64,000 nt of DNA from Alphaproteobacteria bacterium (GCA_965261735.1 OZ253470.1:4352001-4416000), one strand, 5' to 3'. Positions 8,789-61,024 are shown, numbered from the stretch's first letter. Numbers and translations are program-made. Notes: a model not told the origin generated them from the sequence alone.

Positions 8789-8804
8789 CTGCCGGCGGCG
8801 CGCA

Positions 8805-9170: not shown

Positions 9171-10013
9171 GGCCGTCCGAATCGGCATTGCGGCATCGCT
9201 GGAATAGGGATCAGCACCCACATCCCGCTCACTCGACTACGGCAAGACAGCACGGATTATTTCCTGTTCCCTTCATTTGCTTCCCTGATATCGACTGCCC
9301 TTCCCCCTGTTTTGCAGAAAAGACCCCCTGTTCCGCAGAAAAGGCCCCCCTGTTCTGCAGAAAAACAGGAAAGTTCAGAAGTCATTGATAAAAAAAGATA
9401 ATTTCTTCATTTTGGTCGGCAGTTCGCTACAACCTCCCTGTTTTGAGGCCGTAATCGCAAAAATTCCCTGTTGCCACCAAACTCACCCTTGCATCGCGCT
9501 CGCGGAGACCGCACGCCGGGAACCCCGGCAATGGCCGGAAATGCTCCCGCGTTCGGGAGCTCCGAATTGAGATTGACCGCGAAACATGCCCTGTTTTCCG
9601 TGGCTTGGCCGCGACATGCGATGAAGAGACAGCTGCGCCGGGGTGGCTGGCTGTGGGCGCAGTCTGCTGCGAACCTGTCTCTTCGGATTTCCCTGTTAAA
9701 CAGGGAAAATACAGGGAATTTTCACGAAAATGGGAGAATTCGGGCCGATGACCGGTGGTAACCCACTGGAAACAGGCGGTTTTTCCGCTGAATTCCCTAC
9801 AAAACGTAACAGGGAAATTTAAAACCCGAACAGGGACATTAATGCGAGGAACAGGGTATTTGAAACTGCGAACAGTAAGCGATGGAGTGGCCCCCCCGAC
9901 GGCATCGCGATGTGCCATGTTGGCGGTGTTGTCAACGCCAAGATGAGGAAGGGGCGACCATGGAACAAGTTATCATCATCGGGATCGATCTGGCGAAGAA
10001 CAGCTTTCAGCTG
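9171..10013 (+). repeat. Long direct repeat, copy A (partner 49066..49889): last codons of serine recombinase, phased-repeat site and IS110 left end
   Basis: Nearly base-for-base match from GGCCGTCCGAATCGGC to CTTTCAGCTG; copy A has one extra ~22-bp unit. Confidence 0.95.
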
Positions 10014-10370
10014 CACGGTGCGCGGGCGGACGGGTCGGTTGCGTTCCGCAAGAAGGTGAGCCGGGCGAAGCTGCTGGACTTCGTGGCCGAGCAGCCGCGC
10101 GCCACGGTGGCGATGGAGGCGTGCGGCGGCGCGCATCATTGGGGCCGGGAGATCGGCGGTCTCGGCCATGCAGTACGGCTGACCCCGCCGGTTTATGTCA
10201 AGCCCTACGTCAAGCGGCAGAAGAACGACGCTGCGGACGCCGAGGCGATCTGCGAGGCGGCCTCGCGGCCGACCATGCGGTTTGTGGCTGTGAAGACGGA
10301 GGAACAGTCGCCGCAGATCGCGTTGGCCCATCTTCGATAACCGTCCTGAAGCGGAAAAGGTCCCGGCCAT
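9881..10370 (+). mobile_element. IS110-family remnant: left end, N-terminal transposase 9960..~10307, then an inverted C-terminal scrap
   Basis: IGIDLAKNSFQ, VAMEAC, KNDAADAEAICEA; minus strand 10308..10370 encodes GRLSKMGQRDLRR. Confidence 0.85.
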
Positions 10371-10404
10371 CGCCTCGGATGTCCGACAGGATTTTCTGGA
10401 TCAT

Positions 10405-10683: not shown

Positions 10684-10684
10684 T

Positions 10685-10995: not shown

Positions 10996-11039
10996 CTCGA
11001 GAAGGTCGAGGGCGAGTGGACCCTGGTGGCTCTCGCCTA

Positions 11040-11530: not shown

Positions 11531-11566
11531 AAAGCAGCGAGTGTCGCACCCCCGAGACCGAAGGGA

Positions 11567-33416: not shown

Positions 33417-33990
33417 GTCGGGGCGTGCTCGCCTGATGTGTGCGACTTCGCTTGCAAGCTGCGCCTTCAGCGTGAGCTTGCCGCTCTCCGGCATGGGGCC
33501 GAGATAGAGGGTCTTCAGGCGCTTGCCCTCGGCGTCGTGGAAGGAGACCGTGCCGCAGGCAGCCTCGCGCCAGGAGGCCTTGGCGCGACCGTCCTCGCCG
33601 GGTCTCAGCGGCACCATGACGCCGTCGAGGGAGACCGAGGCGGTGGTCGCGTCCTGCGGTATGCCCTCGGCCTCACGGATGCTGCCCAGCGTCTCCGGGC
33701 CGAGGCTCTCCCAGCATTCGTGCATGCTCAGGGTCAGGCGCTGCAGGGTGCTCACCGACGGCGTCATGGCGCCGGTCTTCGCAAAGAACGCCGCCGCTTC
33801 CCGGGCCGTGCAGTGACCCATCATCAGCAGACCGAGCTCGGCCGCCGGCCGCGTCAGGTAATCGTCGACGAGGCCCTGGCTCTCGTCGACTGGCACCGGC
33901 GATGCCCCGCTCGCGCCGCTGCGGTAACGCGCTCGCCGGTAGGTCACCGGACCGAGCGAGGTCATGATCGTCTTCGCCGTCACCGCGACC
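33417..33990 (-). pseudogene. ISKra4/ISLre2-like transposase fragment fused in frame to the integrase
   Basis: TSLGPVTYRRARY, SLDGVMVPL, WREAACGTV. Confidence 0.7.
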
Positions 33991-37080: not shown

Positions 37081-39336
37081 CTCGCCTATCCGGTTTACAC
37101 CCACACCCACTAGGGCTAGTGGATTGATTCCAACGTTTGGAACCCTCTGTTTCGTGCGGCGATGATATGATCGGGGTCGGCTTTCCAGATGAAGGGTTTT
37201 GGGTTTGCGTCATTGTATTCGCGGACAAATCGGTTGATGGCGTCCTGAAGGTCGACGACGGATTGGAAGACGCCGTATTTGAGCCTGCGCCGCGTTAGTT
37301 TGGCGAAGAAGCCCTCGACGGCATTGAGCCACGAGCACGAGGTTGGCGTGAAGTGGAAGGTCCAGCGTGGATGGCGGGCGAGCCAGGCGCGGACCTTGTC
37401 CTTCTTGTGCGCGGCGTAGTTGTCGAGGATGACGTGGACGGCCTTGTCCGTCGGCACCTCGCGCTCGATGCGGTTGAGGAAGCGGATGAACTCCTGATGG
37501 CGGTGGCGCTGCATGTTCTGTGCGATGACCGTACCGTCCAGCACGTTGAGCGCGGCGAACAGCGTCGTCGTGCCATGCCGTTTGTAATCATAGGTCATCG
37601 TACCGGCGCGGCCCTTCTTCATCGGCAAGCCGGGTTGGGTGCGGTCGAGCGCCTGGATCTGTGATTTCTCATCAACCGACAGCACCACGGCATGGGCCGG
37701 CGGATCGACATACAAGCCGACGATATCTGTGAGCTTCTCGGCGAAGGCGGGATCATTGGAGAGCTTGAAGTGCCGCCAGCGGTGCGGGCTGAGGCCATGG
37801 GCCTTCCAGATCGCTTGGACCGTCGACGCCGCGACGCCAGCAACCTTCGCCATCGCGCGCAGCGTCCAGTGGGTCGCCTCGTGCGGCGGCGCTTGCTGGG
37901 TCAGGCGGACGATCTCGGCGACGCGCTCCGGCGGGATCGGCGCTTTGCCAGGCGGACGGGACCTGTCGCGAAGCAAGCCGTTGACACCCTCGTGCATGAA
38001 CCGCTCCTGCCAGCGCCAGACACAGGTCTTGGACTTGCCGGTCTCGGCCATGATCGACGAGTTCCCGAGCCCCTCGTCGCTCTTCAGGATGATCCGCGCC
38101 CGCCAGACATGTTTCTGCGAGCTCTTCGGGTCCGCGACGATAGCTTGCAATCGCTGACGGTCGCCAGACGTGACAGTAAAATAGATGCCGGTGCGCATAG
38201 CACAGACTCGCATGACACCGCACCATACGGAATCTCAAATCGGACTCTTTCGTTCCGATCAATCCACTAGAATGGGCGCAACCCGGATATAGGGGAGCGC
38301 GCCATGGATGTTCTCGACCGCGCCGATCTCCCATTCCCGCATTCGCTACCCGAGTTCCAGCGACTTTTCCCCGATGATGCGGCCTGCGCCGCCTACCTGG
38401 AGAAAGCCCGCTGGGGAGACGGCTTTGCCTGCCCGCACTGCGGCACGGCGGGAGAGCCGTTCCACTTTGAAAACCGCCCTGGCGTCCTGCGCTGCCGCAA
38501 GTGCCGCCAGAACACCGGGCTGACGGTGGGAACAGTGATGGAGCGTAGCCACACTCCGCTGAACGTCTGGTTCTGGGCCGCTTATCTGGTCGCCAGTCAG
38601 ACGCCCGGCATGTCCGCCGTGCAGTTTCAGCGGCAACTTGGTCTTTCGCGCTACGAGACGGCCTTTCAAATTCTCCACAAGCTCCGCTCGGGCATGGTGC
38701 GGCCCAACCAAGATAGGATCGGTGGACAGCCCAAGAACCATGTTGAGGTGGACGAAACCTGGGTTGGCGGGCGAACGCGTGGGGAAGGCCGTGGTGTTCA
38801 CCACAAGGTTCCCGTCTCCTGTGCCATCGAGGTGCGTCATCGAAAGCCGGGCACCAAGCTCGACAACCGGAAAGACGGACGCTATGCCGGACGCGTTCGG
38901 CTCGCCGTCGTGCTCGACCGTAGCGCCGAGTCGCTCTGTGGGTTCGTCGAGAGCACCGTCGCGCCGCGATCGCTGATCGTTACTGACGATTGGAGCGGCT
39001 ATGCTGGCCTCGGGAAGCGCGGCTATGAGCACTTCGCTGTTGCCGAGTGTGGTGATCCAGAGGTTGCCGAGCAATACCTGCCGATCATCCATCTGGTTTT
39101 CGCCAACTTGAAGACGTGGCTGATCGGTATCCACCACGGCGTTAGCCACCAGCACCTACAAGCCTACCTCAACGAGTTCACCTTCCGCTTCAACAGGCGG
39201 TTATACCCGTTCAACGCCTTCCGCTCATTGCTCGGCATCGCGGGCGACACCTCTGCTCCAACCTATGCCGAGCTTTACTCGGGAGAGTGGCGGCACCCTA
39301 CATGTAGCGGTCATCGGCGTTAACCGGATAGGCAAG
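37081..39336 (+). mobile_element. IS1595-family element copy 3 (transposase 38304..39323) with IS630 in its 5' UTR
   Basis: TIRs C(T/C)-variant CTCGCCTATCCGG and CCGGATAGGCAAG; 8-bp TSD CCCGCAAC. Confidence 0.95.
37119..38267 (-). mobile_element. IS630-family element (transposase 37116..38198)
   Basis: TIR GTGGATTGAT; TA duplication in a CTAG target; SVDEKSQIQA, ILDNYAAH, SWLNAVE. Confidence 0.95.
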
Positions 39337-45249: not shown

Positions 45250-46304
45250 GTCGAGCGGCGACCGCTTAGTGTCTATGCGGAGGCGCTGCAATGAACGCTC
45301 CGGCGCCGGCCCGGCGCGACCGGCTGCGGGCAATGCTGGCGGACCTCAAGATGCCGGGCGCGCTGGAGGCCGTCGACGGCATCCTCTCGGACGCCGACGG
45401 CGGCACGATCTCGGCGGCCGAGGCCATCGAGCAGTTGCTGAACGCCCAGATCGTGCTGCGCAACAACCGCCGTCTCCAGACCGCCATGCGCTCTTCGCGG
45501 CTTCCGGCTGTGAAGACGCTCGATCAGTTCGACTTCGCCTTCCAGCCCAGCATCAAGCGCGAGCAGATCGAGAGCTTGCACGAGCTCGGCTTCCTGGACC
45601 GCGGCGAGAACGTGATCCTGCTCGGCCCACCAGGCGTCGGGAAAACGCACTTGGCGATCAGCCTCGCGATCGCGGCGGCCGAGGCCGGCCGGCGCGTCTA
45701 CTACGGCACGCTCGCGGCGCTGATCGAGTCCCTCACCGAGGCCAAGGCCGCCGGCAATCTGACCCGGCGGCTGCGCGTGCTCACCCATCCGGCCCTGCTG
45801 GTGGTCGACGAGATCGGCTACCTGCCGGTCAACCAGGACGGCGCCGTGCTCTTCTTCCAGCTCATCAACGCCCGGCACGAGAGGGCGTCGACTGTGCTGA
45901 CGTCGAACAAGGGTTTCGAGGACTGGGGTGGCGTGCTCGGCGACGAGGTCATGGCGGCGGCTCTCATCGACCGCCTTGTGCACCACTGCCACATCGTCAA
46001 CATCCGGGGCAACAGCTACCGGATGAAGGAGCATCAGAACCTGCTGCAGTCCGGCTCGGATCGACGCAGGAAAAGAGCCGCCGCGTGATCGCCGGCTCAA
46101 ACGGAGACAGGAGCGGTGACACCCGCCCGCTGTGGATAACCGGGTTGTCGCCGCCAGACTCTTGGCGGTCGCTGCGCCAACCCGGTTACCTACAGCTCGA
46201 CCAAGTCCGACACCCCAAACACCGCGTCTGGGGGTACGACCGAACGCTCAAAGTGAGAAATATTTCGATCGACAAAAGTGGGAAATTTTCAGTCGCAATT
46301 GACA
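45250..46304 (+). mobile_element. IS21-family 3' half: istA tail, istB and right end
   Basis: RRPLSVY tail; terminal ...AGTCGCAATTGACA. Confidence 0.9.
45291..46088 (+). CDS. istB: IS21 helper ATPase
   Basis: GPPGVGKT, LVVDEIGY, LTSNK, IDRLVHH, GNSYR. Confidence 0.95.
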   Translation: MNAPAPARRDRLRAMLADLKMPGALEAVDGILSDADGGTISAAEAIEQLLNAQIVLRNNRRLQTAMRSSRLPAVKTLDQFDFAFQPSIKREQIESLHELGFLDRGENVILLGPPGVGKTHLAISLAIAAAEAGRRVYYGTLAALIESLTEAKAAGNLTRRLRVLTHPALLVVDEIGYLPVNQDGAVLFFQLINARHERASTVLTSNKGFEDWGGVLGDEVMAAALIDRLVHHCHIVNIRGNSYRMKEHQNLLQSGSDRRRKRAAA

Positions 46305-46498
46305 ACAACCTCGCGCTGGCCACGGCGATCGTCAAATCGACCTTGCGGCGGGACGGCAACGGCAACCCCGGGCTCGACCGGGCCACGTCGCGCGGGCGCA
46401 TCGACGTGCTGTCGGCGGCGGTGATCGCGGCCGGCCTGGCCGAGCCGATGTTCGACCGGCCGCCGCGCCGGCGCTTCCGCTTCGCCGTCGCCGGATGA
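46305..46498 (+). pseudogene. Phage terminase large subunit C-terminal fragment
   Basis: RRDGNGNPGLDRATSRGRIDVLSAAVIAAG (RID motif). Confidence 0.6.
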
Positions 46499-46640
46499 GC
46501 CGCAATCACGACAAGCTCGACCCGCGCCGCTGGGCCAGGGGTGCGCCGCCAGGCGTTCGATCGCGACGGCTGGCGTTGTCGAGCGTGCGGCCAGGCCGGG
46601 CGGCTTGAAGGACACCATGAGCCGGCCCTGCCGCAGAAAG
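46495..46640 (+). pseudogene. Phage-type HNH endonuclease, frameshifted and truncated
   Basis: RRWAR/VRRQAFDRDGWRCRACG...LEGHH; extra G at ~46540. Confidence 0.65.
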
Positions 46641-46810
46641 AACATAACGTGAATACAACGAGCTGTAAGGCCGGGCTGTTGCAGTCGCCGCGTCGTGCAA
46701 GAGCACTGGACTTGCCGGCGCAAAGGAGCGTCAGTGCGACCACGCCCGGCCACCCCGGGCTTGCCCCGGTAGCGGCGCCGATCTGCGCCGCAATACCGGA
46801 GGAGAACACC

Positions 46811-47107
46811 ATGACCATCAAATCATCGAGGAAAAAGTCGGGATCGCGCGCCGCGAAGGCCACCACCCGCAAGAACTCAAAGGCGACAGCTCCGAAGCAG
46901 CCGGGGACCACGAAGCTCGCTCTTCTCGTCGCCCATCTCAGTGCCCCGGGCGGCGCGACCATCGCCGAACTCTGTAAGGCAACGGGCTGGCAGCCCCATT
47001 CGGTTCGAGGCGGGCTCGCCGGTGCGCTGCGACGCAAGGGCCACGTCATCCGGTCCGAGAAAGAAGGGGGCCTGCGCCGCTACCGCATCGAGGAACCGGT
47101 GGTATGA
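46811..47107 (+). CDS. DUF3489-family (winged-helix-like) protein
   Basis: TKLALLV...GATIAEL..ATGWQPHSVRG...RYRI; GGAG RBS. Confidence 0.9.
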   Translation: MTIKSSRKKSGSRAAKATTRKNSKATAPKQPGTTKLALLVAHLSAPGGATIAELCKATGWQPHSVRGGLAGALRRKGHVIRSEKEGGLRRYRIEEPVV

Positions 47108-47517
47108 CCGGCGTGGCGCCGCTTGCGGACCAAATCGAGGCGCTTATGCCCCTTCGTCTCGAAGGGCTTCGAGAGGTTTGGCGCAACCGCTATGGTGCCC
47201 CGCCGAAGCTGCGCTCGGCCGAGCTGTTGCGTCATTGTCTGGCCTGGCGGTTGCAGGCAGAGGCTCTCGGCGGTCTCGATCGTGACACACGGCGCCAGCT
47301 CAAGCGCCGCCAGCGGGTCCAGGCAGAAGGTCTTGAGCTCGGGATCGGGACCACGCTGCGGCGTGATTGGCGAGGGCGGATCGTCCAGGTCACGGTCGAA
47401 GAAGAGGGGTTTCGCCATAAGGGCCAACTCTTCAAGAGCCTCTCCGCCGCCGCGACCGCGATCGCCGGCACGCGCTGGAATGGCCCGCGTTTCTTCGGTC
47501 TTCGATCCGCTAAATGA
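47104..47517 (+). CDS. DUF2924-family protein
   Basis: LAWRLQ...GGL, GTTLRRDW, SLSAAATAIAGTRWNGPRFFGLR. Confidence 0.9.
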   Translation: MTGVAPLADQIEALMPLRLEGLREVWRNRYGAPPKLRSAELLRHCLAWRLQAEALGGLDRDTRRQLKRRQRVQAEGLELGIGTTLRRDWRGRIVQVTVEEEGFRHKGQLFKSLSAAATAIAGTRWNGPRFFGLRSAK

Positions 47518-49102
47518 GCCAACCCCGTCTCCACTCGCCCTCTATACGAGGAAGAGCAGCGAGGAAGGCCTTGAGCAGGCGTTCAACTCCCTCGATGCGC
47601 AGCGCGAAGCCTGCGCGGCGTATGTGAAGAGCCAGGCCGGCGAAGGTTGGAGAGCGGTCCCGACCCGCTACGACGATGGCGGCTTCTCCGGCGCATCCAT
47701 GGAGCGGCCGGCGCTCAAGCGGCTTCTCTGCGACATCGAGGCCGGCAAGGTCGACGTCATCGTCGTCTACAAGATTGACCGCCTGACCCGGTCCTTGGCC
47801 GACTTCGCACGCATGATCGAGATCTTCGATCGCCGTCGGGTCAGCTTCGTCAGCGTCACCCAGGCCTTCAACACCACGACCAGCATGGGCCGCCTGACAC
47901 TGAACGTGCTGTTGTCCTTCGCCCAGTTCGAGCGCGAGGTGACGGGCGAGCGCATCCGCGACAAGATCGCGGCCTCCAAGGCCAAGGGCATGTGGATGGG
48001 CGGCATTGTGCCGCTTGGCTACGAGCCGCCTGAGAATGACGCGCGCGCCCTGGCGGTCAACCAGGAAGAAGCCGAGATCGTGCGCACCATCTTCCGAGCC
48101 TATATCGACCTCGGCTCGGTGCACGCGCTGCAGCGATGGCTTGAGGATCGGGGCATCCGTTCGAAGCGGCGCGTGACGCGGGCGGGTCGACTATCCGGCG
48201 GCGGGCCGTTCAGCCGTGGCGCGCTCTTTCAACTGCTGCGCAACAGAGTCTATCGCGGCATGATCGTCCACAAGGGGAGGGCGCATCCCGGCCGGCACCA
48301 GGCCATCATCGATGGCGATCTTTTCGCGGCCGTCCAGGCGCGGCTCGACGCGAACACCCGCCGCCGGGCATCGAATCGCGAGCAAAAGGCGAATGCCCCT
48401 CTGGCCGGGCGCCTCTTCGATGCGGATGGTCGGCCGATGTCGCCGACCTTCTCTTATGGGCGGGGTGGCAGGCTCTATCGCTACTATGTCTCGGCACCGC
48501 TGCAGCAAGGGGCAAGGCGCGATCCATCCGACACAGCCATCCGGCGCATATCCGCCCCACCGCTCGAAGTCGCCCTCGCGACCGTGCTGCGTCGCCTGAT
48601 CGCGGGATGTCCGGACGATCCCATCACGCTTGTTGTCCGCGCCGAGCTCCACGATCAGTCGCTGCACTGCTTGCTGCCGATCGACCGGATCGTCGCGATG
48701 CGCGAGCGCCTCGAGCCCCACGAACGGGTCGAGCCGGATCCGGCCGATGCACGTCTCGCCAGGCTGCATCTTCCCCTTGTCCGGCGTCGCGGCGAGACCT
48801 GGGTTCTTAAGGGCCAAAGTCCGGGACACATGCCGGACCCTGTTCTGGTCAAGGCGCTCCGCTCCGCACACGCCATGCTGCACCACGATGATGCCGGATT
48901 GCCCGTGCTCGTCACAGCGCCGGATACGCCCTATCGCCGCCGCCTCGTCCGCCTGGCCTTTCTGGCGCCGGAGATCCAAAGAGCGATTGTTGAAGGTCGC
49001 CAATCCGCAGGCCTGACACTGGCACAGCTCCTCAAGGGCCCGATGCCGCTCGACTGGCCGCAACAGGCCGTCCGAATCGGCATTGCGGCATCGCTGGAAT
49101 AG
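47514..49102 (+). CDS. Large serine recombinase; 1-nt frameshift at ~47535
   Basis: YTRKSS, DDGGFSG...RPAL, YKIDRLTRS and recombinase domain; the ATGA-coupled start MSQPRLH needs one extra G (TGC) to join ALYTRKS. Confidence 0.88.
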
Positions 49103-49889
49103 GGATCAGCACCCACATCCCGCTCACTCGACTACGGCAAGACGGGCCGGATTATTTCCTGTTCCCTTCATTTGCTTCCCTGATATCGACTGCCCTTCCC
49201 CCTGTTTTGCAGAAAAGAACCCCTGTTCTGCAGAAAAACAGGAAAGTTCAGAAGTCATTGATAAAAAAGATAATTTCTTCATTTTGGTCGGCAGTTCGCT
49301 ACAATCTCCCTGTTTTGAGGCCGTAATCGCAAAAATTCCCTGTTGCCACCAAACTCACCCTTGCATCGCGCTCGCGGAGACCGCACGCCGGGAAGCCCGG
49401 CAATGGCCGGAAATGCTCCCGCGTTCGGGAGCTCCGAATTGAGATTGACCGCGAAACATGCCCTGTTTTCCGTGGCTTGGCCGCGACATGCGATGAAGAG
49501 ACAGCTGCGCCGGGGTGGCTGGCTGTGGGCGCAGTCTGCTGCGAACCTGTCTCCGCGCCAATTCCCTGATAATCAGGGAAAATACAGGGAATTTTCACGA
49601 AAATGGGCGAATTCAGCCCAGTGATCGGCGGTAACCCACTGGAAACAAGTGGTTTTCCGGTGAATTCCCTACAAAACATAACAGAGAAACTTAAAACCCG
49701 AACAGGGACATTAATGCGAGGATCAGGGAATTTGAAACTGCGAACAGTAAGCGATGGAGTGGTCCCCCTCCCGCCGGCATCGCGATGTGCCAGGTTGGCG
49801 GTGTTGTCAACACCGAGATGAGGAAAGGGGCGTCCATGGAACAAGTTATCATCATCGGGATCGATCTGGCGAAGAACAGCTTTCAGCTG
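49066..49889 (+). repeat. Long direct repeat, copy B (partner 9171..10013)
   Basis: Same sequence as copy A; includes IS110 left end and MEQVIIIGIDLAKNSFQL. Confidence 0.95.
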
Positions 49890-50140
49890 AGCTGGTCCGC
49901 GGTGCGGCCCTGGCGTCCGGCGTGGAGTTTGGCCTCGAGGTGGTTGACCAGGTCGACGACGTTGTAGCAGCGGCCACGGGTGCCCATTCGGATGCAAGCG
50001 CGGGCGATAGCGACGGCGAGATGGGTCTTGCCGGTGCCGGTGCCGCCGGCGAGCTCCTGGATCAGGGGATCGTTGACCGGTGAGCGGGTCAACGAGATCG
50101 TCGCCAACCATGTCGGTCACCCTGTTAGTGTGACAACGCC
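49890..50140 (-). pseudogene. Mosaic of istB, IS1380 and IS6-end scraps
   Basis: GGTGTGKTHLA; LTDMVGDDLVDP; IS6-like terminus GTGACAACGCC at 50130..50140. Confidence 0.65.
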
Positions 50141-50316
50141 GCCGTTGCTGTCTTCGGGAAGAGACGGGCGGGTTGGAGTGTTATTCGGCGCGCAAGTTTG
50201 CCGCCACAGAATCGCGCGTCATCAAGGTCTTGGCGCGCCGATCGGCGTCGAACCCTCGCGCCGAACAACACCTGGGTAACGCCCGGAGCGCCGCGAAGCC
50301 GGATGACCGAGGCGTC

Positions 50317-52782
50317 TCAGCGTGGTCGCAGGATCAACGTGCCGAGGGCATTTTCCTCTACGCGGACGCGGTCGGTGAGCATCGGCAGATAGCGGCCATC
50401 ACGCCAAGCTTCGGCGAAATCATCATAGTGGACCGAGAGCGGGTTCCCGGACTGGCCGGTGCTCTGGATGAAGACAGAGCGCTCGGGCTCGCCAAGGTCG
50501 TAGACGGCCCGATAGCCGGCGCCATGATCCTGGACGAACGGGTGGTCGGGGTTGCTCACCGTGAAGCCGCCGGCCTTCACCGTCGCCCTCTCGCCCCCGC
50601 TCGGCAGCCAGACCTCGAACCAGGAGCCGATGACGGGGATCTCTCCCAGAACCCGGTGCTTCATCCACACGGCATGGGCCTCGCCCCACCGCCATTCCGC
50701 CAAATCGGTGCCGTAGTGGCGCGCGAGGTTCGCAATCGCGTCGCTGAGCGCGGCGGCAGCAGCGGTGGCGCAACTCTCCCGCTCATCGGTGGTCGCCACG
50801 TCGCACCAGTCGGTCCTCTTGGTGAGCACGCGGTGCATCACCTCGGTACGGATCTCCCAATAGTCCTCGAATGCCTCGCCGAGCTCGTCCGCGAACAGTT
50901 CGCGCATCAGTTCCCTGAGCCACGCCATGTAGATCAACGGCTCGGGACGGTCCCGGCCCATTCGGTGATCCCACGCGGCAAGCAGATCCAAGGCCTGGCT
51001 CGTGGCGTCGTCCGAGGGCGCCGTCAGCTCAAGGAGCACGGGCAGGAGGCGTGCCGCGGCGAGAGAGACCACATCCTGCTGGATGGCGGTAAAGCTCTCG
51101 ACGCCGTGCGCCGGGCGGGCATCGAGCAGGGCTTCGATCCGCCGGGCGCGATAGGGAGGCGTCCAGTCGTCGGTCAGATAGAACGGATAGTCAAGCCCAA
51201 CCAGCCTGTCGTTGGCGGCGACGATGCGGCCCTCGTCAGGATTGTCGGCGCGCGGCAAAGCCTCGAAAGGAATGCGATCCACCCAGTCGTGGGTCCCGGT
51301 CCAGCCCGGCGCGGGCATGTGTCCCTGGCCGGAGGCGCGGATCGGGATCCGCCCGGGCGCGACGTAGCCGATGTTCCCGGACCGGTCTGCGAATACGATG
51401 GTCTGCTGGGGCACGGCCATGTCGCGGAGTGCCGTGACGAAAGCGTCCCGATCCGCGGCGGCGACGGCACGCACCAGCGCCTCGGCGGTTCGGTCGTCAT
51501 CGTCGAGGGCGGTCCAGGAAAAGGCCAGGGTGTGGCCAGCCTCGAGAAACGACCCGCTGTCCTCGATCACGTCGGAGACGACCGGCCCGTGGCGGGTCTC
51601 GCGCACCGTGATCTCCACGGCTTCGGCCCCTGCGACACGGATCGTCTCGGTCCGAACCTCGAAGGGCAGACTGCCGTCGGGCGTCAAATAGCGAGCAGGG
51701 TCGTGCGGGTCGATGCGCTCGATGAACAGGTCCTGGACATCGGGTCCGGTGTTGGTGAAACCCCACGCGAAGTTCCGTGTGCGGCCGAGCACCGGGAAAG
51801 GCAACCCGGGCAGGGTGCCGCCCACGGCCTCGAACTCGGGGGTGCTGATATGGGCAAGATACCAGAGGCTGGGCATCTCGAGCCTCAGATGCGGATCGTT
51901 GGCGAGAAGCGGCTTGCCTGATTCGGTGTGGGCGCCGGAGAGAACCCAGCTGTTGGAGCCGAGCCCGGACACCCTCTGTTTTGGCACGGCCGCGGCGATC
52001 GCCTCGAAGTCGATATCGGCGGGGTCGAAGGATGGCCAACGCGCGGCCGGGGGCGGCGAGGCATCTCCCGGGTAGGGAGCCCAGAGATCCCGCAGCTGGT
52101 CCGGGTCAAGGCGACTGGCGAGCCTGGCACGAAGGAGTTCGTCCTCGAAATTATCGCCGAGGTCCCACGCCATCATCTTGAGCCAGACCAGGCTGTCGGC
52201 GGGCTGCCACGGTTCGGGCTCGTGCCCGAGCACCACGAACTCCAACGGAAGCAACCCGGATCGGGTCTCCAGATAGGCGTTCACACCGGCGGCATAGGCA
52301 TGGTAGATCGCCCGCGTCTCGGGCGAAAGCATCGAGAAGTTGCGCTCGGCGACCCGATAGACGCCCAGCGTCCGGAGGAACCGGTCCGTATTGAGGGAAC
52401 GGTCGCCGAAGATCTCGGAGAGCCGCGCCGCACCGACCCTACGCTGCATTTCCATCTGCCAGAGCCGATCCTGTGCGTGGACGAAGCCCATCGCGAAGGC
52501 GCCGTCCCGCGGCGACTGTGCATAGATGTGCGGGATTGCATGGGTATCGCGGACAATCTCCACGGGAGCGTCGAGCCCGGTCACGCTTTGGGTGCCGTCA
52601 TAAGAAGGCAGTGACAGCCACGAACAGGCGCCGAGGACGACCAGAAGCGCGAATATCGGAAGGGCACCGAGGCCCGCGCGGAGCCGCGGGAGCCGAAAGC
52701 CCCGCCGGATTTCCCTTCCGCCGGCTGTCCCACCAGGGGCGGAAGCGACGGGCAACGAAGGGCCGTGAGGTGGTGTTGTCAC
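50317..52782 (-). CDS. Penicillin acylase family (Ntn) hydrolase
   Basis: RDTHAIPHI, HAQDRLWQM, GSNSW nucleophile, LANDPHL, GQSGNPLSVHY. Confidence 0.92.
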   Translation of the reverse strand: MTTPPHGPSLPVASAPGGTAGGREIRRGFRLPRLRAGLGALPIFALLVVLGACSWLSLPSYDGTQSVTGLDAPVEIVRDTHAIPHIYAQSPRDGAFAMGFVHAQDRLWQMEMQRRVGAARLSEIFGDRSLNTDRFLRTLGVYRVAERNFSMLSPETRAIYHAYAAGVNAYLETRSGLLPLEFVVLGHEPEPWQPADSLVWLKMMAWDLGDNFEDELLRARLASRLDPDQLRDLWAPYPGDASPPPAARWPSFDPADIDFEAIAAAVPKQRVSGLGSNSWVLSGAHTESGKPLLANDPHLRLEMPSLWYLAHISTPEFEAVGGTLPGLPFPVLGRTRNFAWGFTNTGPDVQDLFIERIDPHDPARYLTPDGSLPFEVRTETIRVAGAEAVEITVRETRHGPVVSDVIEDSGSFLEAGHTLAFSWTALDDDDRTAEALVRAVAAADRDAFVTALRDMAVPQQTIVFADRSGNIGYVAPGRIPIRASGQGHMPAPGWTGTHDWVDRIPFEALPRADNPDEGRIVAANDRLVGLDYPFYLTDDWTPPYRARRIEALLDARPAHGVESFTAIQQDVVSLAAARLLPVLLELTAPSDDATSQALDLLAAWDHRMGRDRPEPLIYMAWLRELMRELFADELGEAFEDYWEIRTEVMHRVLTKRTDWCDVATTDERESCATAAAAALSDAIANLARHYGTDLAEWRWGEAHAVWMKHRVLGEIPVIGSWFEVWLPSGGERATVKAGGFTVSNPDHPFVQDHGAGYRAVYDLGEPERSVFIQSTGQSGNPLSVHYDDFAEAWRDGRYLPMLTDRVRVEENALGTLILRPR

Positions 52783-52951: not shown

Positions 52952-54318
52952 CTGGGATTCCCCATGTTGGAACCGATCCACGCGGGAAAGCGTGCCAAAA
53001 TCGTTCCGGATTGGCAAGCCGCTTGCTGCTGACGGTCGGCGTTGGCCACGTGCGCGATAGAGGGGGCTGGGGGCCCTGGCGGCGTCCGATATTGGGTTCG
53101 ACACGACATTCGAGACGCACCGGTCCCGTGATCGGCCAGCGGTGATCGGTCTGCCGACGGTCATGCCGGACTTGGATTCGGTCTGAGCCGGTCGATGCGG
53201 CGCAGGATATCGGCGAACAGGTCACGGGGGATGGCGACCTCGGCCATCTGGAACGTGACGTAGCGCCCGTGGCGGACGATCTTCGCGCCGATCTTGATGA
53301 GCTTCTCCCGCAGGCTGGTCAGTGACCACTGTTCCACGGCATCGGGCAACGCCAGGGTGCGCATGAAATTACCGAGGTTGTAGGCCAGCGCGTGAAGCTG
53401 CAGCCGGACGGCGTTGTGGTCGAACCTGCGGCACGACAGCCGGGTCCACTTGATGGCGTTCTTGCCTTCCTTGATGTGCTGTTCCGCCGTGCCGCGCTGA
53501 TTGTAAAAGGCGACGACGCGCTCAGCACGGCGCGAGAGGTTGGTCACGATAAAGCCGACGCGCGGGTACAGCTCACCTGGATGCCACTCGACCTTGGCGA
53601 CGACCCGACGGGGCTTCGTCCAAGTGGCAGCCCGATAGCTGAAGCTGGCGTAATACCGGCGCACGTCCTTGGGCGGTCTGCCGACGGGACGCTTGAGCAG
53701 ATGGCCGATGCTGTCCTGGAGCACTCTGTTAGCCGGCAGGCGGATCGCGTACCTGAAGCCTTCGGCTTCGAGGAACTCGTAAATCCCGGGCAATGCAAAC
53801 GCAGCATCTCCTCGGAAGTAGCGCCGAAGCAGCCTGTCTCGATAACGAGCGACAACCGGCTCGAGCACGTCGCGCCATTCGTGGGCGCTGTGCACGTTGC
53901 CGGGGCGAAGCGCGCAGCGCTCCAGATCGCCAAACTGGTTGAACACGAACAGCGGATGATAGCAGGTGCAGCCGAAATGGCCGTTGTAGGCCGTGCCTTC
54001 CTGCTCGCCATGGGTCGGGCTAACGGAGCTGTCCATGTCGAGCACGATGATCTTCAGCCGGTTCCGTGCATGCACTCGGTCGATCCAGACTCCCGGAAGA
54101 GCGGTGAGCGCGGCGAGGTTGTCGTCGATTGTCAGCAACTCAGTCTCGAACCGGCCCATCTGGCTGGTCGATGCGCCGCCGCGCTCGACAGCCTTGCCGC
54201 CGACGACCCACCGCATCGCGGGATCGCGCCCGAGCCGGTCGGCGTCGTTCACATCCTCGTATCCGGCGAGCCGTCCAAAGACGGATTGGCGAAGCAGACC
54301 GACGACACCGTGCCAACC
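52952..54318 (-). mobile_element. IS1380-family element, 5'-truncated (transposase ends 53161)
   Basis: 363-aa ORF colinear with the 22511 copy; right end CTGGGATTCCCCAT. Confidence 0.9.
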
Positions 54319-54736: not shown

Positions 54737-55762
54737 CCTGCTTATCCCTGAAAGTCATCCGGCGATGAGGAGGCGATAGGGCATGGGCTGGTTTCGTGCG
54801 GCGCTATGGACGAAACGCGGGATCATTGTCTGGAGTTGATAGCGCCGGTTGTAGCGCCAGGCGAAGCTGGCGAGATAGCGTCCGGCATGGTCGGGGCCGA
54901 GCTTGCGATAAGTCCCGGTGATCGCGCTCTTGATGTTGCCGAGCGTCGTGTTCACCCATTTGAACGATGCCATGCGGGCCGCCTGGCGGCCCGACCCGGT
55001 GCGGATCGCCTGGTGGCTGCAGGCGGCTTCTTCGAGTGCGCTCCAGCAGCCCAGGCCGTCCGTCACAACCGCCGCTCCGGGGGCCAGCCAGTGCTTGGCG
55101 CCGCGCGCGATCTCGCGCTTGCGGAAGCCCTTGACCGGCGCCAGCTTCAGCTTGCGCGGGCGCCCCTCGGGACTGGTCGAGACCGCCGCCACGAAGGGCG
55201 TTTTGCCCGCCGCGCCGCGGCCCCGCTTGCCGCCGGAGCGCACCCCGCCGAGATAGGCGTCGTCCATCTCGACCCGCCCCGTAAGCGCCGTCTCCCCCTC
55301 GCGCCGCGCCATCACCGCCATGATCTTGTGCTTCACGGCCCAGGCCGTCGGCTGCTTGACCCCGAGACGGCGGCCGAGTTCCACCGACGAGATGCCGTTC
55401 TTCGCCGTCACGATCAGGTGGATGGCGGCAAACCAGACTGTCAGCGGCAGCTTGGTCGCGTGGAAGATCGTGCCCGCCGTGGGCGATGTCTGCTTCTTGC
55501 ACCGGTTGCATTGATAGAGACCCCGACCCGCCAACACGCAATGCTCCCGATGGCCGCAGCAGGGGCAGACGAAGCCGCCCGGCCAGCGCAGCCGGACCAG
55601 CGCCGCGCGGCACTGCTCCTTGGTGCCGAAGGCCTCCCGAAACGCCTCGTCGTTCAGACCACGCACGCGCGATGCAACCTTGAACCCCATAACCGTGACG
55701 CCCTCATACAGAACATATTGAGAACATACATCCCCACAGGCAGAGTGTCACGGATAAGCAGG
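54737..55762 (-). mobile_element. IS1595-family element, second type (transposase 54755..55690)
   Basis: TIR CCTGCTTATCC; VEMDDAYLGG, VTDG, FAWRYNRR; no TSD. Confidence 0.92.
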
Positions 55763-56373: not shown

Positions 56374-59300
56374 TCACGCCGCCCTCGCAAATTGGTCGTT
56401 GACGGCCTGCTGCCAGACATGGGCGTAGACCTCATCCGCGACCGCCCCCTTTTCCTCGTTTGTGAAAGGCGGTGTTGGCAGGCTGGCGTAGTCTTGGTCG
56501 AGGATGAACATCTTGACCTCCGCCTTGGTCTGTTCCTTCTCCCAAAAGCGGTCGAGCTCAGAGAGGCGCGCCTTGATCGTATCCAAGAGGTCCCGGCTCG
56601 CCTGCTTGACTCGCTCTCTTTCGCCTGTGGCGAGATTATCCTTCTTCAACAGGTCGAACAGGGCGAGCTCGTCCTCGCTGAGCCCTTCCTCGACTGCGCG
56701 CTTCTCCTCCGCGTCCAGCTCTTCAACCAAGTCGACCAAACGCTGGAAGGTCTCCTCGATGGTGGCGCGGTCCTTCTCGCGGTTGTAGTCGGCGACGATC
56801 TCTTCGTACTTCTGCTGATAGTCCATGCGCGACGGGTTGCGCGCCAGCATCTCGGCCAGCTTCTGCTCGATGATCTCGCGGATGTCCTGGAGCGCGGTCG
56901 CCTGGTGGCGGACCTTGTTCGCGAACTCGTTACGTAGCTTTTCCATGTCGATCTGGCTGAGGTCAAAGGTCAGCCCCTCGGCCTGGTCGTCACCTGGCGT
57001 CTGCGTGCGGATCGCCTCGTTGACGATCCGGTGCAGCTCCTTGAGCAGCGCCGTCACGTCTGCGGTGTCGCGCCGCTCTGTCAGCTTCTTGTAGATCGCT
57101 TCGATGTTGTCGTGCCGCTCGGCATACGCATAAACGCTGGGCTCCATCAGAAGTGCCTTGAAGCGCGTGAACACCTGCCGTGCCAGCAGCTCGAACCGGC
57201 GCTTCGCCTCATCGCTCGAATAGACGGCCTCGACCGCGTCCTTCAGCCCCTTGATGCGGGCGAAACCGGTCGAGCCGACGAGCGTCGCCGGGTCGAACCC
57301 GAGGTCACGCAAGTGCGCCTCCGTCGCCTCGATGGCCTCGATCAGGGCCTGCACGCGCTCTTCTACCGGTTCGACAATCTCCCCGTCGCCGTCGCCGTCG
57401 CCGTCGTCGCCCAACGCATATTGCGCCAGCGCCTCGCGCAGGCTCTTCAGCATGCCGTTGTAGTCGACGATCAGGCCGAAATCCTTGCCGGGATAGACCC
57501 TGTTCGCCCGCGCGATCGCCTGCATCAGCGTGTGCGCCTTCATCGGCTTGTCGATGTAGAGAGTGGACAGGCATTCCACGTCGAAGCCCGTCATCCACAT
57601 CGCGCACACGATGGCGACACGGAAGGGATGCTCTGGATTCTTGAACGCGCTCTCTACATCGACGCGCTCCCCATCTGTGGTCTCGAAACCCCGCTTCATC
57701 ACGGCGCGATGAGGGATGATGTCGAAGCCCCATCTCGCGAAGTCTTTGACCTCGTTCTGCGCCTCGCTGATGATGATCTCGACGACGGTCTCATCCATCC
57801 AGGCAGCCTGAGCCGCCAGCTTGTCAGCCTCCTCCATAAGCTTGGCGCGGCCGATCTCGTCGCCCGCTGTCGCGGCTTCCGCTCGTTTCGCGTCTGCAGC
57901 CTCGCGGACCTCTGTCGCCTTCTCCTTCCATCTCGGTTGGATTAGCTGGAGCATCCGGGCACACGTGATCTTGTCGATGCAAACCAGCATCGACTTGCCC
58001 GACTCCCACCGGGTCGCGCAGTGTTCGACGAAATCGACGGCGATCTTGTCCAGCCGTTCGTCGGCAGTGATGACTTCGTAATCTTGGCCCAGCAGCTTCT
58101 CGAGCAGCGCCTCCTGATCGGGATTGAGTTCGGCATACGCGATCGTTGCCGCGATGATTTCGTTCAGGTCGGTGCGCGCCACGCCCAGCTTCTCGCCGCG
58201 ATTCTCGTAGACCAGCTTGACGGTCGCGCCGTCCTCCTCGGACCGCTTGAAGTCGTAGCGCGAGACGTAATCGCCGAAGATGCGTTTGGTAAGCTCATCC
58301 TGCTTGAACAGCGGCGTGCCGGTGAAGCCGATGAAAGCCGCGTTCGGCAACGCGAGCCGCATGTTGCGCGCCAGCCGCCCTGCCTGCGTGCGATGCGCCT
58401 CGTCGGAGATCACGATGATGTCGTCGCGCTCGCTGTAGGGCTGCTTCGGGTTCACGTCCTTGTTGAACTTGTGAATCAGGCTGAACACGTAGCGGCGGTT
58501 CTCCTTCAGAAGCCGCTCCAGATCGTGACCGGACGCTGCTCGTGGCGTCTTTTCGTCCGCGACGCCGCAGCCGACGAAGGTCCTGTAGATCTGGCTGCTC
58601 AGATCGTTGCGGTCGGTCATCAGCAGGAAGGTGAAGTTGCCTTCCAGTTTCCGCCGCACCTTCTGGGCGAAGAAGGCCATGGAGTATGACTTGCCGCTGC
58701 CCTGCGTGTGCCAGAACACGCCAAGCCGGCCCAGATCGGGATGCGCCCTCTCGATGATATCGACCGGCCCCTCGGGGATGAACGGCGAGGCCGCTTCGGT
58801 CAAAGCCTGTGCCGGCAGCGTCCTTGCCGAGGCGCGGGACTCGAGCGGCAGTTCGACGACGCGGTGCCTAAGGCGCTGCTCTGGCGGGAACTCCAGCTTC
58901 AGCGCCTCCTGCTTCGCCACCGATGCCACCGCCCTGTTGACTCCCAGCACCTGGTGGTTGCGCGCGATCACCTTCCGCGTCGTGCCGGGCTTGCTGTCAT
59001 CGAACAGGATGAAGTTTTCGACGATATCGAGCAGCCGGTCGTGTGCCAGCATGCCGTTCAGCAGCACTCTGGCCGCCAGGTCGCCACTGTCGGCCTCGTC
59101 GTGCCGTTTCCACTCGGCAAAGTGCTCCCACTCGCTGGTGATGGAGCCGTAGCGGGCGCGGTCGCCGTTCGAGACGATCAGGAAGGCGTTGTGATGGAAG
59201 GCTTGCGCAATGACGCTCTCGTCCATGTAGTCGGAGAGGTTGTTGTCGAAACCCTCGCGGATGTTCTTGTGGACGGCCTTCAGCTCGATGAAGACCAGCG

Positions 59301-59793
59301 GCAGCCCGTTGATGAAACAGACCAGATCAGCGCGGCGGTTGTAGTTGGGCGTGCGGATGCCGGTGAGCGTCAGCTCACGCACGGCGAGGAAGCGGTTGGA
59401 ACCCAGCGCGTTGTCGAAATCGATCACTCGGGCACGGGCGGACTTCCGGTGGCCTTGAGTATCCCGATATTCAACGGGCACGCCGCCACGGAGCAGGCGG
59501 TAGAAGTCCCGGTTGTGCTGCAACATTGAGCGGCTAACGTTGTATTCCGTCAGCGCCCTTAGCGCGTCCTCGATGGCGCTGACGGGCAGATCTGGATTGA
59601 GCCGTTCCAGCGCCGCCCTTAGGTCGCGGGTCAGCAGCGCGTCTTTGGTGTCGGAACGGCCGAGAGTGCCGTCCGGCCCGAAGATCTCCTGGTTCCAGGC
59701 ATAGACGCTGTCCCAGTCCAGCACCCGCTCCAAATGCTCGGCGAAGGTCGCCTGCACCAGCCGATCCTCGCTGTTGACGGGCGTCACCGCCAT
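56374..59793 (-). CDS. hsdR: Type I restriction endonuclease subunit R
   Basis: RADLVCFINGLPLVFIELK, HTQGSGKS, DEAH, FTGTP, QAIARANR. Confidence 0.95.
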   Translation of the reverse strand: MAVTPVNSEDRLVQATFAEHLERVLDWDSVYAWNQEIFGPDGTLGRSDTKDALLTRDLRAALERLNPDLPVSAIEDALRALTEYNVSRSMLQHNRDFYRLLRGGVPVEYRDTQGHRKSARARVIDFDNALGSNRFLAVRELTLTGIRTPNYNRRADLVCFINGLPLVFIELKAVHKNIREGFDNNLSDYMDESVIAQAFHHNAFLIVSNGDRARYGSITSEWEHFAEWKRHDEADSGDLAARVLLNGMLAHDRLLDIVENFILFDDSKPGTTRKVIARNHQVLGVNRAVASVAKQEALKLEFPPEQRLRHRVVELPLESRASARTLPAQALTEAASPFIPEGPVDIIERAHPDLGRLGVFWHTQGSGKSYSMAFFAQKVRRKLEGNFTFLLMTDRNDLSSQIYRTFVGCGVADEKTPRAASGHDLERLLKENRRYVFSLIHKFNKDVNPKQPYSERDDIIVISDEAHRTQAGRLARNMRLALPNAAFIGFTGTPLFKQDELTKRIFGDYVSRYDFKRSEEDGATVKLVYENRGEKLGVARTDLNEIIAATIAYAELNPDQEALLEKLLGQDYEVITADERLDKIAVDFVEHCATRWESGKSMLVCIDKITCARMLQLIQPRWKEKATEVREAADAKRAEAATAGDEIGRAKLMEEADKLAAQAAWMDETVVEIIISEAQNEVKDFARWGFDIIPHRAVMKRGFETTDGERVDVESAFKNPEHPFRVAIVCAMWMTGFDVECLSTLYIDKPMKAHTLMQAIARANRVYPGKDFGLIVDYNGMLKSLREALAQYALGDDGDGDGDGEIVEPVEERVQALIEAIEATEAHLRDLGFDPATLVGSTGFARIKGLKDAVEAVYSSDEAKRRFELLARQVFTRFKALLMEPSVYAYAERHDNIEAIYKKLTERRDTADVTALLKELHRIVNEAIRTQTPGDDQAEGLTFDLSQIDMEKLRNEFANKVRHQATALQDIREIIEQKLAEMLARNPSRMDYQQKYEEIVADYNREKDRATIEETFQRLVDLVEELDAEEKRAVEEGLSEDELALFDLLKKDNLATGERERVKQASRDLLDTIKARLSELDRFWEKEQTKAEVKMFILDQDYASLPTPPFTNEEKGAVADEVYAHVWQQAVNDQFARAA

Positions 59794-59830
59794 GGCGCAC
59801 ACGCGCATGTGCCGGTGATCTGCGTCAGCA

Positions 59831-61024
59831 TCAGACCGCGATCTCCCCGTCCATCAGGCGCGGGAGGAGAAGGTCGCGGGCTTGGGCCAACTTCTCGTTC
59901 TGATTAGTGAGGCATAAGACTTGTTCGTCAAAGGAATTCGCTTGACATTCAAACTCCTTCAGCAGTCGTGGCGTGGGTCCAATAAGCGCTTGGCTTTCAA
60001 GCTCTTTCTTGTTTGTTGCTGCGTAGATTGATCCTGAACCGATGATGTCCTCTGCATGGAAATGGTTCTTCAACGCATAGAACAAGAAAGATTGCTGTGC
60101 AGCCCGCGAGCGGATTGCGGCAAGGCCCCTTCCCAGCACAATGTTGTTTCGGGTAATATTGATCCGCCCCACAGGAGCACGAACGCTCACAAGAATGTCG
60201 CCCGCCGCAGCGACTTTAGTCACCGCAGAAGAGTAAATTTGGTCTGTGAGGAAGCGTCGTCCGTAGCCTGTAACGCCTTGATGAAAGGGAAAGCCTTCAC
60301 CGATTTCATTGTAAAAAATTGACTTAGGGCTTTGCCCCATCACCACTTCAGCAATCTCAATCAGGGGCTTCCACCCCCACCCCTCAGGAAGGCCATCGTC
60401 GAACTTGACGTGTTCGTGACCGGGAAAGCGGAAGTGGACGAACCATTCGCGGTACAGAAGCCGCGCCGCCTCTTCCAGCAACGCAATCCGCCGCCGGTTA
60501 TTTTGGATCAAGTCATCGTAGGCAGAGAGGATATCACATATTTTTCGCTGAATAGCGACCGGGGGAGCTTCTACCCTAATTGCGTAAATGCGTTTCGGAG
60601 CTGTGTGCTTGACTTTCGTTCCTGAGGCGGTAGCTCGAATTTGTCCTCTTACCTGCGGAGTGTTGAACAGCCGATACAAATATCCTTTGTTCAGCTTGCG
60701 CTCGTCAAGATTTTGAATTAACCCGATACGCTGGTTATGTAAATAACTCCCGTCTTCAGGGATCAGGGCGCTGCTACCTAGCAAGCCCTCTCCTTGTTCC
60801 GTCATTGCAATCACTAGATCACCGGGTTGCAATACAAACTCGTCGGGCGGCTCGATGGTATAGAAGCGGTCCTTGCCAGGCCGGGAGCGGAAGCCACCCG
60901 GCTCAAAGAAATTACCTGGTGTCAAAACGATGTGTTCGCCACTGTTTCCAAAGTACCGACTCTTGAACGCCGAACCATGTTTGATTGTGAAACACTCGCC
61001 TAGAGCAATCTCCTGCCAGCTCAC
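59831..61024 (-). CDS. hsdS: Type I R-M specificity subunit
   Basis: Two TRDs; QRKI..ILSAYDDLI.NNRRRI and RDLLLPRLM conserved helices. Confidence 0.95.
   Translation of the reverse strand: MSWQEIALGECFTIKHGSAFKSRYFGNSGEHIVLTPGNFFEPGGFRSRPGKDRFYTIEPPDEFVLQPGDLVIAMTEQGEGLLGSSALIPEDGSYLHNQRIGLIQNLDERKLNKGYLYRLFNTPQVRGQIRATASGTKVKHTAPKRIYAIRVEAPPVAIQRKICDILSAYDDLIQNNRRRIALLEEAARLLYREWFVHFRFPGHEHVKFDDGLPEGWGWKPLIEIAEVVMGQSPKSIFYNEIGEGFPFHQGVTGYGRRFLTDQIYSSAVTKVAAAGDILVSVRAPVGRINITRNNIVLGRGLAAIRSRAAQQSFLFYALKNHFHAEDIIGSGSIYAATNKKELESQALIGPTPRLLKEFECQANSFDEQVLCLTNQNEKLAQARDLLLPRLMDGEIAV

Follow-up and report, generated by a model that had tools for sequence, protein, structure and literature searches.

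Genome engineering values large serine integrases because they need no more than a short site and a single protein. The attachment site attP of phage lambda is recombined by the tyrosine integrase Int with arm-type sites, integration host factor (IHF) and Xis, the two-handed integrase holding core and arm, and integration at the 3' ends of tRNA genes is common among lambda-type integrases. Small serine recombinases also have accessory sites (res II/III of Tn3/gamma-delta, Sin with HU/IHF, the Hin/Gin enhancer with Fis); these bind the recombinase itself or Fis, extend over ~100 bp on one side, and select resolution or inversion. For serine integrases, sites of ~40-50 bp are described that need neither accessory DNA nor a DNA-bending protein (accessible parts of PMC1470463 and PMC12286644; short sites free of accessory DNA also in the available text of 10.1101/2025.05.02.651858), and tRNA genes are not among their known targets as far as the accessible part of PMC4383910 goes. 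Here we describe a stretch of 64,000 nucleotides from an Alphaproteobacteria bacterium (GCA_965261735.1 OZ253470.1:4352001-4416000; hereafter the window, with positions counted from its first base), in which a three-gene module of DUF3489, DUF2924 and large serine recombinase genes is followed by ~650 bp of non-coding DNA with regularly spaced boxes. We read this region as the unsplit attP of a decayed temperate-phage-like element whose large serine integrase inserts at the 3' ends of tRNA-Ser genes and whose site carries long arms, and we give this reading a probability of roughly 0.55.

The module comprises a DUF3489 gene (46811..47107, + strand; Pfam PF11994, E 6e-21 on a longer open reading frame), a DUF2924 gene abutting the integrase start (47104..47517, + strand; PF11149, E 4e-38), and the large serine recombinase (integrase) gene (47514..49102, + strand; Resolvase PF00239, E 2.8e-38, and Recombinase PF07508, E 2.4e-16); all three domain assignments of the preliminary description, which was made from the sequence alone, were thus upheld by Pfam. 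The non-coding DNA behind the module is referred to as copy B. A second copy of this stretch (copy A) is located at 9172-10020 and begins, according to the alignment of the two copies, with the last 36 bases of the integrase gene (9172..9207, + strand) and no upstream part of it. The GC content across the site is 0.54-0.56, versus 0.62-0.70 in the surroundings.

Both copies contain many boxes with the consensus AAWTTCCCTGTTAT, which was derived from 73 boxes. The heptamer CCCTGTT has 22 matches in the window, 11 of them in copy A and six in copy B, against a mean of 5.27 in 100 shuffled sequences (maximum 12, none reaching 22). The boxes of both arms face the core described below and stand partly in tandem at 21-22 bp, a spacing that places them on one face of the helix. 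The P arm (~390-410 bp between integrase stop and core; 8-9 boxes) extends over 9208..9624 in copy A, with tandem boxes at 9263, 9284, 9306, 9327 and 9349 (+; spacing 21, 22, 21 and 22 bp), an inverted box at 9364 (-) after this near-side tandem, and further boxes at 9437, 9467 and 9590 (+). In copy B it extends over 49103..49496, with boxes at 49158, 49179, 49201 and 49222 (+), 49237 (-), and 49309, 49339 and 49462 (+); the near side is the set of copy A less one 22-bp unit. The P' arm (at least 185 bp beyond the core) is represented by 9682..9865 in copy A, with a palindrome (9689-9707) and boxes at 9771, 9808, 9829 and 9850 (-), and by 49554..49737 in copy B, with a palindrome (49562-49580) and inverted boxes at 49701 and 49722; here the arm is cut by an IS110-family insertion sequence (IS).

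The array coordinates of the preliminary description that were checked all hold, including the near-side CCTG(T/A)T boxes of copy A and the 21-22 bp spacings. Of its four inverted far-side boxes three stand, as AACAGG at 9808, 9829 and 9850 (spacing 21 and 21 bp); in copy B, the boxes at 49701 and 49722 fit the search pattern and the third has a substitution. The fourth (9871-9875 / 49745) reads AACAG only and lies at the start of the plasmid IS110 homology (boundary at 9865-9881), and is probably part of the IS end, outside the array. The palindrome, which had been regarded as the center of the site, is present in both copies (TTCCCTGTT-A-AACAGGGAA in copy A and TTCCCTGAT-A-ATCAGGGAA in copy B), but it forms the first pair of boxes in the P' arm and does not mark the crossover: the crossover core is located 8-64 bp to its left, at the tRNA junction of integrated relatives. 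The compensatory double change claimed for the two palindromes comes from two copies only, and CCCTGAT is an ordinary variant box elsewhere in the array.

Between the two arms lies a 57-bp unit with inverted outer motifs (AGAGAC...GTCTC), at 9625..9681 in copy A and 49497..49553 in copy B, with 57/57 bases identical between the copies. Its left half, AGAGAC..GTGC..GGGGTGG.TGGCGG, is kept in all loci of the box-bearing clade described below. Its right half, ..GCAGTC..CGAACC.GTCTC, stands in the window where integrated relatives have a tRNA gene after the left block, and is common to both window copies and the loci L005, L034, L067 and L074, whose sites are likewise unsplit. The tetranucleotide TGGC, the reverse complement of the tRNA 3' end, lies just left of the geometric middle of the unit, as read from the sequence. 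Because the two halves join here and the TGGC lies near the middle, the unit is taken as the putative core attP of the integrase, and we infer that strand exchange would occur at this TGGC.

Related loci (labeled L001, L005, L034, etc.) were obtained from a genome scan with one genome per species, which yielded 79 loci with recombinases 43-66% identical to that of the window. A tRNA gene was found behind the recombinase in 31 of them (gene start between 100 bp before and 700 bp after the nominal integrase end), in all 31 on the opposite strand, the hallmark of elements that have inserted at tRNA 3' ends; the tRNA types are Gln (11 loci), Ser (eight), Leu (four), Met (two), and six others once each. 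In L002, L003 and L007, the tRNA-Ser gene starts exactly at the end of the conserved left half of the core (TGG), and L008 has variant boxes plus a tRNA-Ser gene at the same place. In L001-L004 and L006-L008 the P arm is joined to host DNA, and only the P arm remains beside the module and the tRNA gene in the integrated relatives. Hence, the integrase-proximal end at a tRNA 3' end is found in relatives; the window holds an unsplit site, and no tRNA gene was found within it. The genes upstream in the closest loci are phage-like (a ParB-domain methylase, DUF5681 pairs, and a terminase in L005), and all three module proteins fall in phage protein families (PHROGs), so the element class, called poorly characterised in the preliminary description, is not wholly obscure.

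Some of these loci show further features. L005, on the chromosome of an Acidocella metagenome-assembled genome, has an unsplit attP-type site inside the chromosome (347-1720 and 7579-12586). It is flanked to either side by phage genes, of which a methylase and a terminase gene lie downstream, and a Mu-transposase-like gene is located upstream, 5 kb away; on the P' side, forward-oriented boxes and another short tandem repeat take the place of inverted boxes. In L001, a tyrosine integrase gene lies directly behind the serine-integrase site (7688-9001), which suggests two elements stacked at one target. In other clades (L013, L014, L017, L030, L035, L046, L058, L059, L079, and others) the P arm is 170-290 bp long and without CCCTGTT boxes, and contains an inverted (A)GAGAC ... 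GTCTC(T) pair, 30-50 bp apart, ~100-150 bp before the tRNA junction, which from its sequence looks like a second, complete integrase-type site; in the clade of the window there is only one conserved GGAGACC, ~120 bp ahead of the core.

The box motif, its phasing and its order recur behind the recombinase stop across several alphaproteobacterial families. Of 70 downstream regions, 10 contain a chain of at least three like 8-mers with a 20-23 bp period, versus 0-1 of 70 for each of five other spacing classes, and nine of the 10 loci with phased chains have CCTGTT/CAGGG-type boxes. Right after the recombinase stop, L001-L007 contain 2-5 CCTGTT boxes at 20-23 bp; an inverted AACAGGAAA follows 15 bp past the last tandem box in all nine arms that have one. 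Three more boxes follow in L001-L007, the first after a gap of 73-87 bp (L006 excepted), the second ~30 bp and the third ~120 bp further on; from the third it is ~35 bp to the core block. The P' arms of L034, L067 and L074 are like that of the window, with a box by the core, ~100-118 bp, and boxes at 21-22 bp. In a recombinase tree of 64 rows (those below 480 amino acids left out), nine of the 10 box-labeled rows fall in one clade of 12 (Shimodaira-Hasegawa-like approximate likelihood ratio test, 98). Thus, the phased array expected for DUF3489-DUF2924-recombinase modules does recur, in one recombinase clade and not across all such modules. Eight loci of this clade have 4-9 boxes per 450 bp after the stop versus 0.19-0.45 elsewhere, and no other cluster of boxes was found in up to 13.5 kb searched per locus. 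These data support a link of the array with the recombinase module, over an origin by chance or an association with the neighboring IS.

An IHF-like site was confirmed on the reverse strand where it had been claimed (9379-9390 in copy A; 49252-49263 in copy B), with one mismatch to the IHF consensus. It lies 25-27 bp past the inverted box in seven loci and 14 bp past it in the window, i.e. one helical turn less. At this place, the best IHF-like site has at most one mismatch in five of nine P arms and at most two in eight of nine, compared with 0.015 and 0.08 expected by chance per search.

Several functions other than integration could be served by such arrays, beside an attP of the ordinary short kind: an iteron origin, a partition or centromere-like site, a pac/cos-like site, or repressor operators. 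Iteron origins (e.g. of RK2, P1, F and pSC101) and some pac/cos sites typically combine direct repeats at ~22 bp with an AT-richer stretch and an IHF-like site, and the window site resembles them in its ~22 bp repeats, its IHF-like site and a local GC drop (to 0.54); furthermore, winged helices, the fold modeled for DUF3489 (see below), include centromere binders, with AspA among the DUF3489 fold matches (E 0.08), and most DUF2924-integrase loci are without phased boxes, so that the enzyme family as such does not need them. However, no Rep, ParA or terminase gene is predicted in the module by Pfam, no Rep initiator gene was found in the module, in its neighbors (Pfam) or in six related loci, and none of the nine DnaA-box matches in the window (at most one mismatch to the consensus) lies in either copy. 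An iteron-type origin, one of the options of the preliminary description, finds no support and was rejected on these two grounds, and one arm alone stays in the integrated relatives. Unlike iterons, the arrays face each other across the core. Integration splits them and would abolish any function for which both are required. They also hug the core at ~35 bp and ~8 bp, distances that are kept across genera, and the boxes cluster nowhere else in the stretches searched. In the integrated relatives, the P arm lies between the converging ends of integrase and tRNA genes, with no promoter to regulate. In the window, a scan of 49000-49900 gave one promoter-like and two terminator-like matches, which is close to the shuffle means and carries no weight here. 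Overall, we regard these other functions as unlikely.

The window integrase shares the resolvase catalytic and recombinase domains with phage large serine integrases (phiC31, Bxb1, A118/LI, TP901-1, and SprA of SPbeta), and, as in these systems, the gene lies beside its own site, with a core of ~57 bp and inverted outer motifs. It differs from them in the conserved arms of ~400 and at least 185 bp, where known sites comprise ~40-50 bp in all; in a DUF2924 partner gene that is almost always fused in the operon; and in the use of tRNA genes as targets. The protein falls in the integrase family phrog_95. Its profile gives sequence matches to the TP901-1, A118, SPbeta and phiC31 integrase structures, with the TP901-1 catalytic domain at E 2e-29 and the A118 integrase up to profile position 356. 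Beyond position 356 of 536, i.e. over ~180 positions, no match to solved serine integrases was obtained by sequence, and no zinc ribbon was matched by Pfam in the C-terminal 267 residues even at E up to 10. This C-terminal segment is conserved also in clades without boxes. By eye, residues ~270-521 (window 47537-49099) contain a cysteine-free stretch at the usual place of the cysteine motif, possibly a cysteine-less remnant of the zinc ribbon. A match to another phage family, phrog_14161, was obtained for the C-terminal 50 residues.

A DUF2924 gene immediately precedes the recombinase gene in 68 of the 74 loci examined. Its model (predicted local distance difference test, pLDDT, 89.4) consists of four helices followed by a beta-rich domain, and a fold search of the PDB gave no match at E 0.001 or better; a weak Pfam side-match to DUF4357 (E 0.007) is below the cut-off. 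A partial match of DUF2924 to the RAMA DNA-binding domain is reported in the accessible part of PMC11342252. A complex of integrase and DUF2924 was modeled with scores of 0.67, 0.73 and 0.73 in three runs, whereas the best of three controls reached 0.01; the mark for this score is reached by 116 of 157 solved complexes and two of 215 mismatched pairs, and, the alignments being our own, is only a rough guide here. Between runs, at least 57% of the contacts are shared, and the partner pLDDT is at least 73. The predicted interface joins integrase residues 441-507 (of a 521-residue query) with DUF2924 residues 8-69 and leaves the beta-rich half free; the model supports binding of DUF2924 to the integrase.

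Pfam detected DUF3489 in 40 of 74 loci, and a purpose-built profile recovered it from 10 of another 32. Since it occurs with and without boxes, the idea that its presence tracks the boxes was dropped. The protein belongs to phrog_10315 (function unknown), and its model (pLDDT 76.7) has a basic disordered tail and a folded core of residues 35-94, the best PDB fold matches of which are winged helices of the ArsR/SmtB/MarR type (probability 1.00; E 2e-3 and weaker); DUF3489 therefore models as a winged helix-turn-helix protein. The literature searched contains nothing on DUF2924 or DUF3489 in connection with attachment sites.

The closest parallel to the proposed working of the site is lambda attP, which likewise has a core between P and P' arms; its arm-type boxes are repeated and stand in tandem on the P' side, and an IHF site lies between arm boxes and core (in the window, by sequence pattern only); the two-handed Int would be matched, in prediction, by integrase plus DUF2924. 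The window enzyme differs from Int in being a serine and not a tyrosine recombinase, and because of this the site is not filed under the lambda family; in addition, the arm-binding module would be a separate protein instead of an N-terminal domain, the boxes are spaced at 21-22 bp, and the arms are longer. The small-serine-recombinase accessory sites also hold a crossover site within a nucleoprotein architecture that includes a bending protein, but they differ from the window site in the protein bound, in their one-sided span of ~100 bp, and in serving resolution or inversion and not integration.

The intasome-like reading of the preliminary description fits these findings: the core has boxes to its left and right, an IHF-like site is kept in place, and the small proteins look DNA- or recombinase-binding. 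In the mechanism that we propose, a protein of the element would bind the boxes and coat one face of each arm. DUF2924 would be the best candidate for this, its N-terminal helices holding the C-terminal domain of the integrase with the beta-rich half free, and the winged helix of DUF3489 might act with DUF2924 or in its stead; we infer that the boxes are bound by one or both of these proteins. IHF, or another host bending protein, would bend the P arm so that the arms fold back onto the core-bound integrase. This would make the recombination complex dependent on the architecture of the DNA, as at lambda attP, instead of on a bare 50-bp site; the conservation of the arms suggests that the 57-bp core might not suffice by itself. 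Integration would separate the arms and dismantle the attP-specific complex; as the arms are split in this way, an arm-dependent complex could tell attP from the products attL and attR.

Alternatively, the arms might be accessory sites bound by the C-terminal domain of the integrase itself or by a host protein, with DUF3489 and DUF2924 in other roles such as directionality factor or regulator, an arrangement similar to that of small serine resolvases and their accessory sites. The ~180-position C-terminal segment without counterpart in solved serine integrases could provide such binding, both small proteins are retained by box-free clades, L007 has boxes and no detectable DUF3489, and the extra GAGAC...GTCTC pairs in the P arms of many other clades look integrase-type. 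On the other hand, the C-terminal segment is conserved in box-free clades too and so does not track the boxes, it is the predicted docking surface for DUF2924, and the box motif is unlike the core half-sites; we consider this alternative rather improbable.

Some of the observations weigh against the armed attP proposed here, or against its details. The crossover position is deduced from junctions, and an intact attP within a chromosome (window, L005) needs an added explanation, such as a remnant or another route of entry. The P' arm is known from unsplit sites only, and in L034, L067 and L074 the boxes are confined to the P' side, the P arms being free of them. About 60 of the 70 loci are without a phased array yet keep DUF2924 and often DUF3489, which means that these proteins cannot exist only to bind CCCTGTT boxes, and the boxed locus L007 has no DUF3489 within 2.5 kb upstream. 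A RAMA-type entry (MPND-DNA) ranked only 24th in the DUF2924 fold search (E 1.1, probability 0.44), and a DUF2924 profile search of solved structures found nothing.

A more far-reaching version is that the locus represents the first serine-integrase 'intasome': a two-part enzyme in which DUF2924 bridges the 57-bp core and the phased arms with the help of IHF, the zinc-ribbon/coiled-coil logic has been abandoned, and direction is read from the architecture, with the DUF2924-linked family forming a large, overlooked tRNA-targeting group. This version is tentative, and we hold it to be possible but doubtful. No description of such an armed serine-integrase site was found in the literature searched, which left out most subscription journals, and a prior report is therefore possible. 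If an obligatory small partner, long phased arms with a bend site, and insertion at tRNA genes prove true, they would widen the known mechanisms of this enzyme class and offer new control points for directionality. The locus also bears on genome annotation: in the accessible text of a 2019 survey, the integration sites of most Paracoccus serine-recombinase prophages had not been identified and a single tRNA-Met case was predicted (PMC6536676), yet 31 of the 79 relatives described here lie against a tRNA gene.

Small proteins followed by a serine recombinase are also found in Wolbachia phage WO and Acidithiobacillus phage AcaML1, whose enzymes are 32% identical over 95% of the window integrase (WO) and 52% identical over its first 59% (AcaML1). 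A recombinase just downstream of a DUF2924 protein is described for a WO-like region in the available part of PMC10299305. In the surroundings of the WO and AcaML1 recombinases that were examined, no chain of at least three boxes at 20-23 bp was found. AcaML1 has a separate gene annotated 'recombinase small subunit' behind its recombinase gene.

Both copies of the window site run into the start of an IS110-family transposase gene, and the IS110-family fragment (Pfam DEDD_Tnp_IS110, + strand) at 9866..10340 in copy A and ~49738-49890 in copy B, where the boundary was carried over from copy A, truncates the P' array. In the two copies, the element interrupts the P' arm at one and the same position and is truncated differently, with a remnant of 126 codons in copy A and ~18 codons in copy B; the latter is followed by an IS21 IstB-like fragment on the opposite strand (49883-50107). 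Tn7 and Mu ends carry sub-terminal repeats in opposite orientation at the two ends. That the site represents the ends of a non-autonomous transposable element (Tn7-, Mu- or IS21-like), or an IS110 left end with its guide RNA, is scarcely credible in spite of the opposed 21-22 bp sub-terminal repeats, the IS110 gene behind both copies and the Mu-transposase-like gene 5 kb away in L005, as homology to the IS110 of 767 plasmid records starts only at 9865-9881, beyond the boxes, the same arrays always stand behind an integrase, also in loci without IS110, and with a single arm against a tRNA gene in integrated relatives, no DDE transposase adjoins the array in L001, L002, L004, L006 or L007, an RNA element (including a bridge RNA) was rejected for the lack of any Rfam match at E up to 1 (46000-50500, i.e. 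copy B) and for 0 consensus pairs from RNAalifold across seven P-arm interiors, and a multi-copy mobile repeat was rejected, as far as plasmids go, for the lack of any match of the 694 bp of copy A in 72,556 plasmid records (distant blastn).

The P arms of copies A and B are identical at 336 of 339 aligned bases (99.1%), apart from the 22-bp unit and a 1-bp indel. Over 9682-9880 the identity is 177 of 198 bases (89.4%), with the first mismatch at 9682, the first base past the core, and it stays near 92% onward up to the IS110 gene. In the comparison of 9682-9959 with 49554-49835, identity thus changes abruptly at the core edge, from 99-100% on the left to 89-92% on the right. This drop right after the core is expected if exchange happens at the core, and the two copies seem to be mosaics joined there; the step fits two related elements that swapped arms at the core, or alternatively ordinary recombination.

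In this window the system is dead: its integrase gene carries a frameshift, the P' arm is interrupted by IS110, and the genes have been lost from copy A. The frameshift near 47535 was confirmed, with the start MSQPRLHCALYTRKSS in one frame and the remaining protein in another; full-length relatives of the integrase have ~529 amino acids, are up to 96% identical to the window protein, and begin with MSQPRLHCALYTRKSS. Relatives with 88-96% identity occur as unnamed database proteins, and none of them is among the 79 genome loci, the best of which is 66% identical. The region upstream of DUF3489 (46109-46810) had appeared by eye to contain remnants of a terminase C-terminus and an HNH nuclease; this was not supported by Pfam or PHROGs. 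Copy A lies directly downstream of DUF2958 and RadC-like genes (window 7533-8788), which are typical of the leading regions of conjugative elements; copy A therefore sits in a mobile context other than that of copy B.

The window is crowded with insertion sequences according to Pfam. Four IS1595-type genes (14191-15135, 16984-18003, 38304-39323 and 54755-55690), three DDE_Tnp_1_4 genes (34-849, 22511-23860 and 53161-54252), and IS66, IS5-type, IS630-like and Mutator-type genes were predicted, as well as a group II intron-type reverse transcriptase (2863-4122). A tyrosine integrase is encoded at 32295-33983, 13 kb away from the site and unrelated to it. Two IS6/IS240-type genes with identical scores (18187-18882 and 21014-21709) enclose a glutaredoxin gene. 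A complete type I restriction-modification operon (R, S and M genes) is located at 56374-63135, and a separate N-terminal HsdM fragment (21719-22339) adjoins an IS6-type element.

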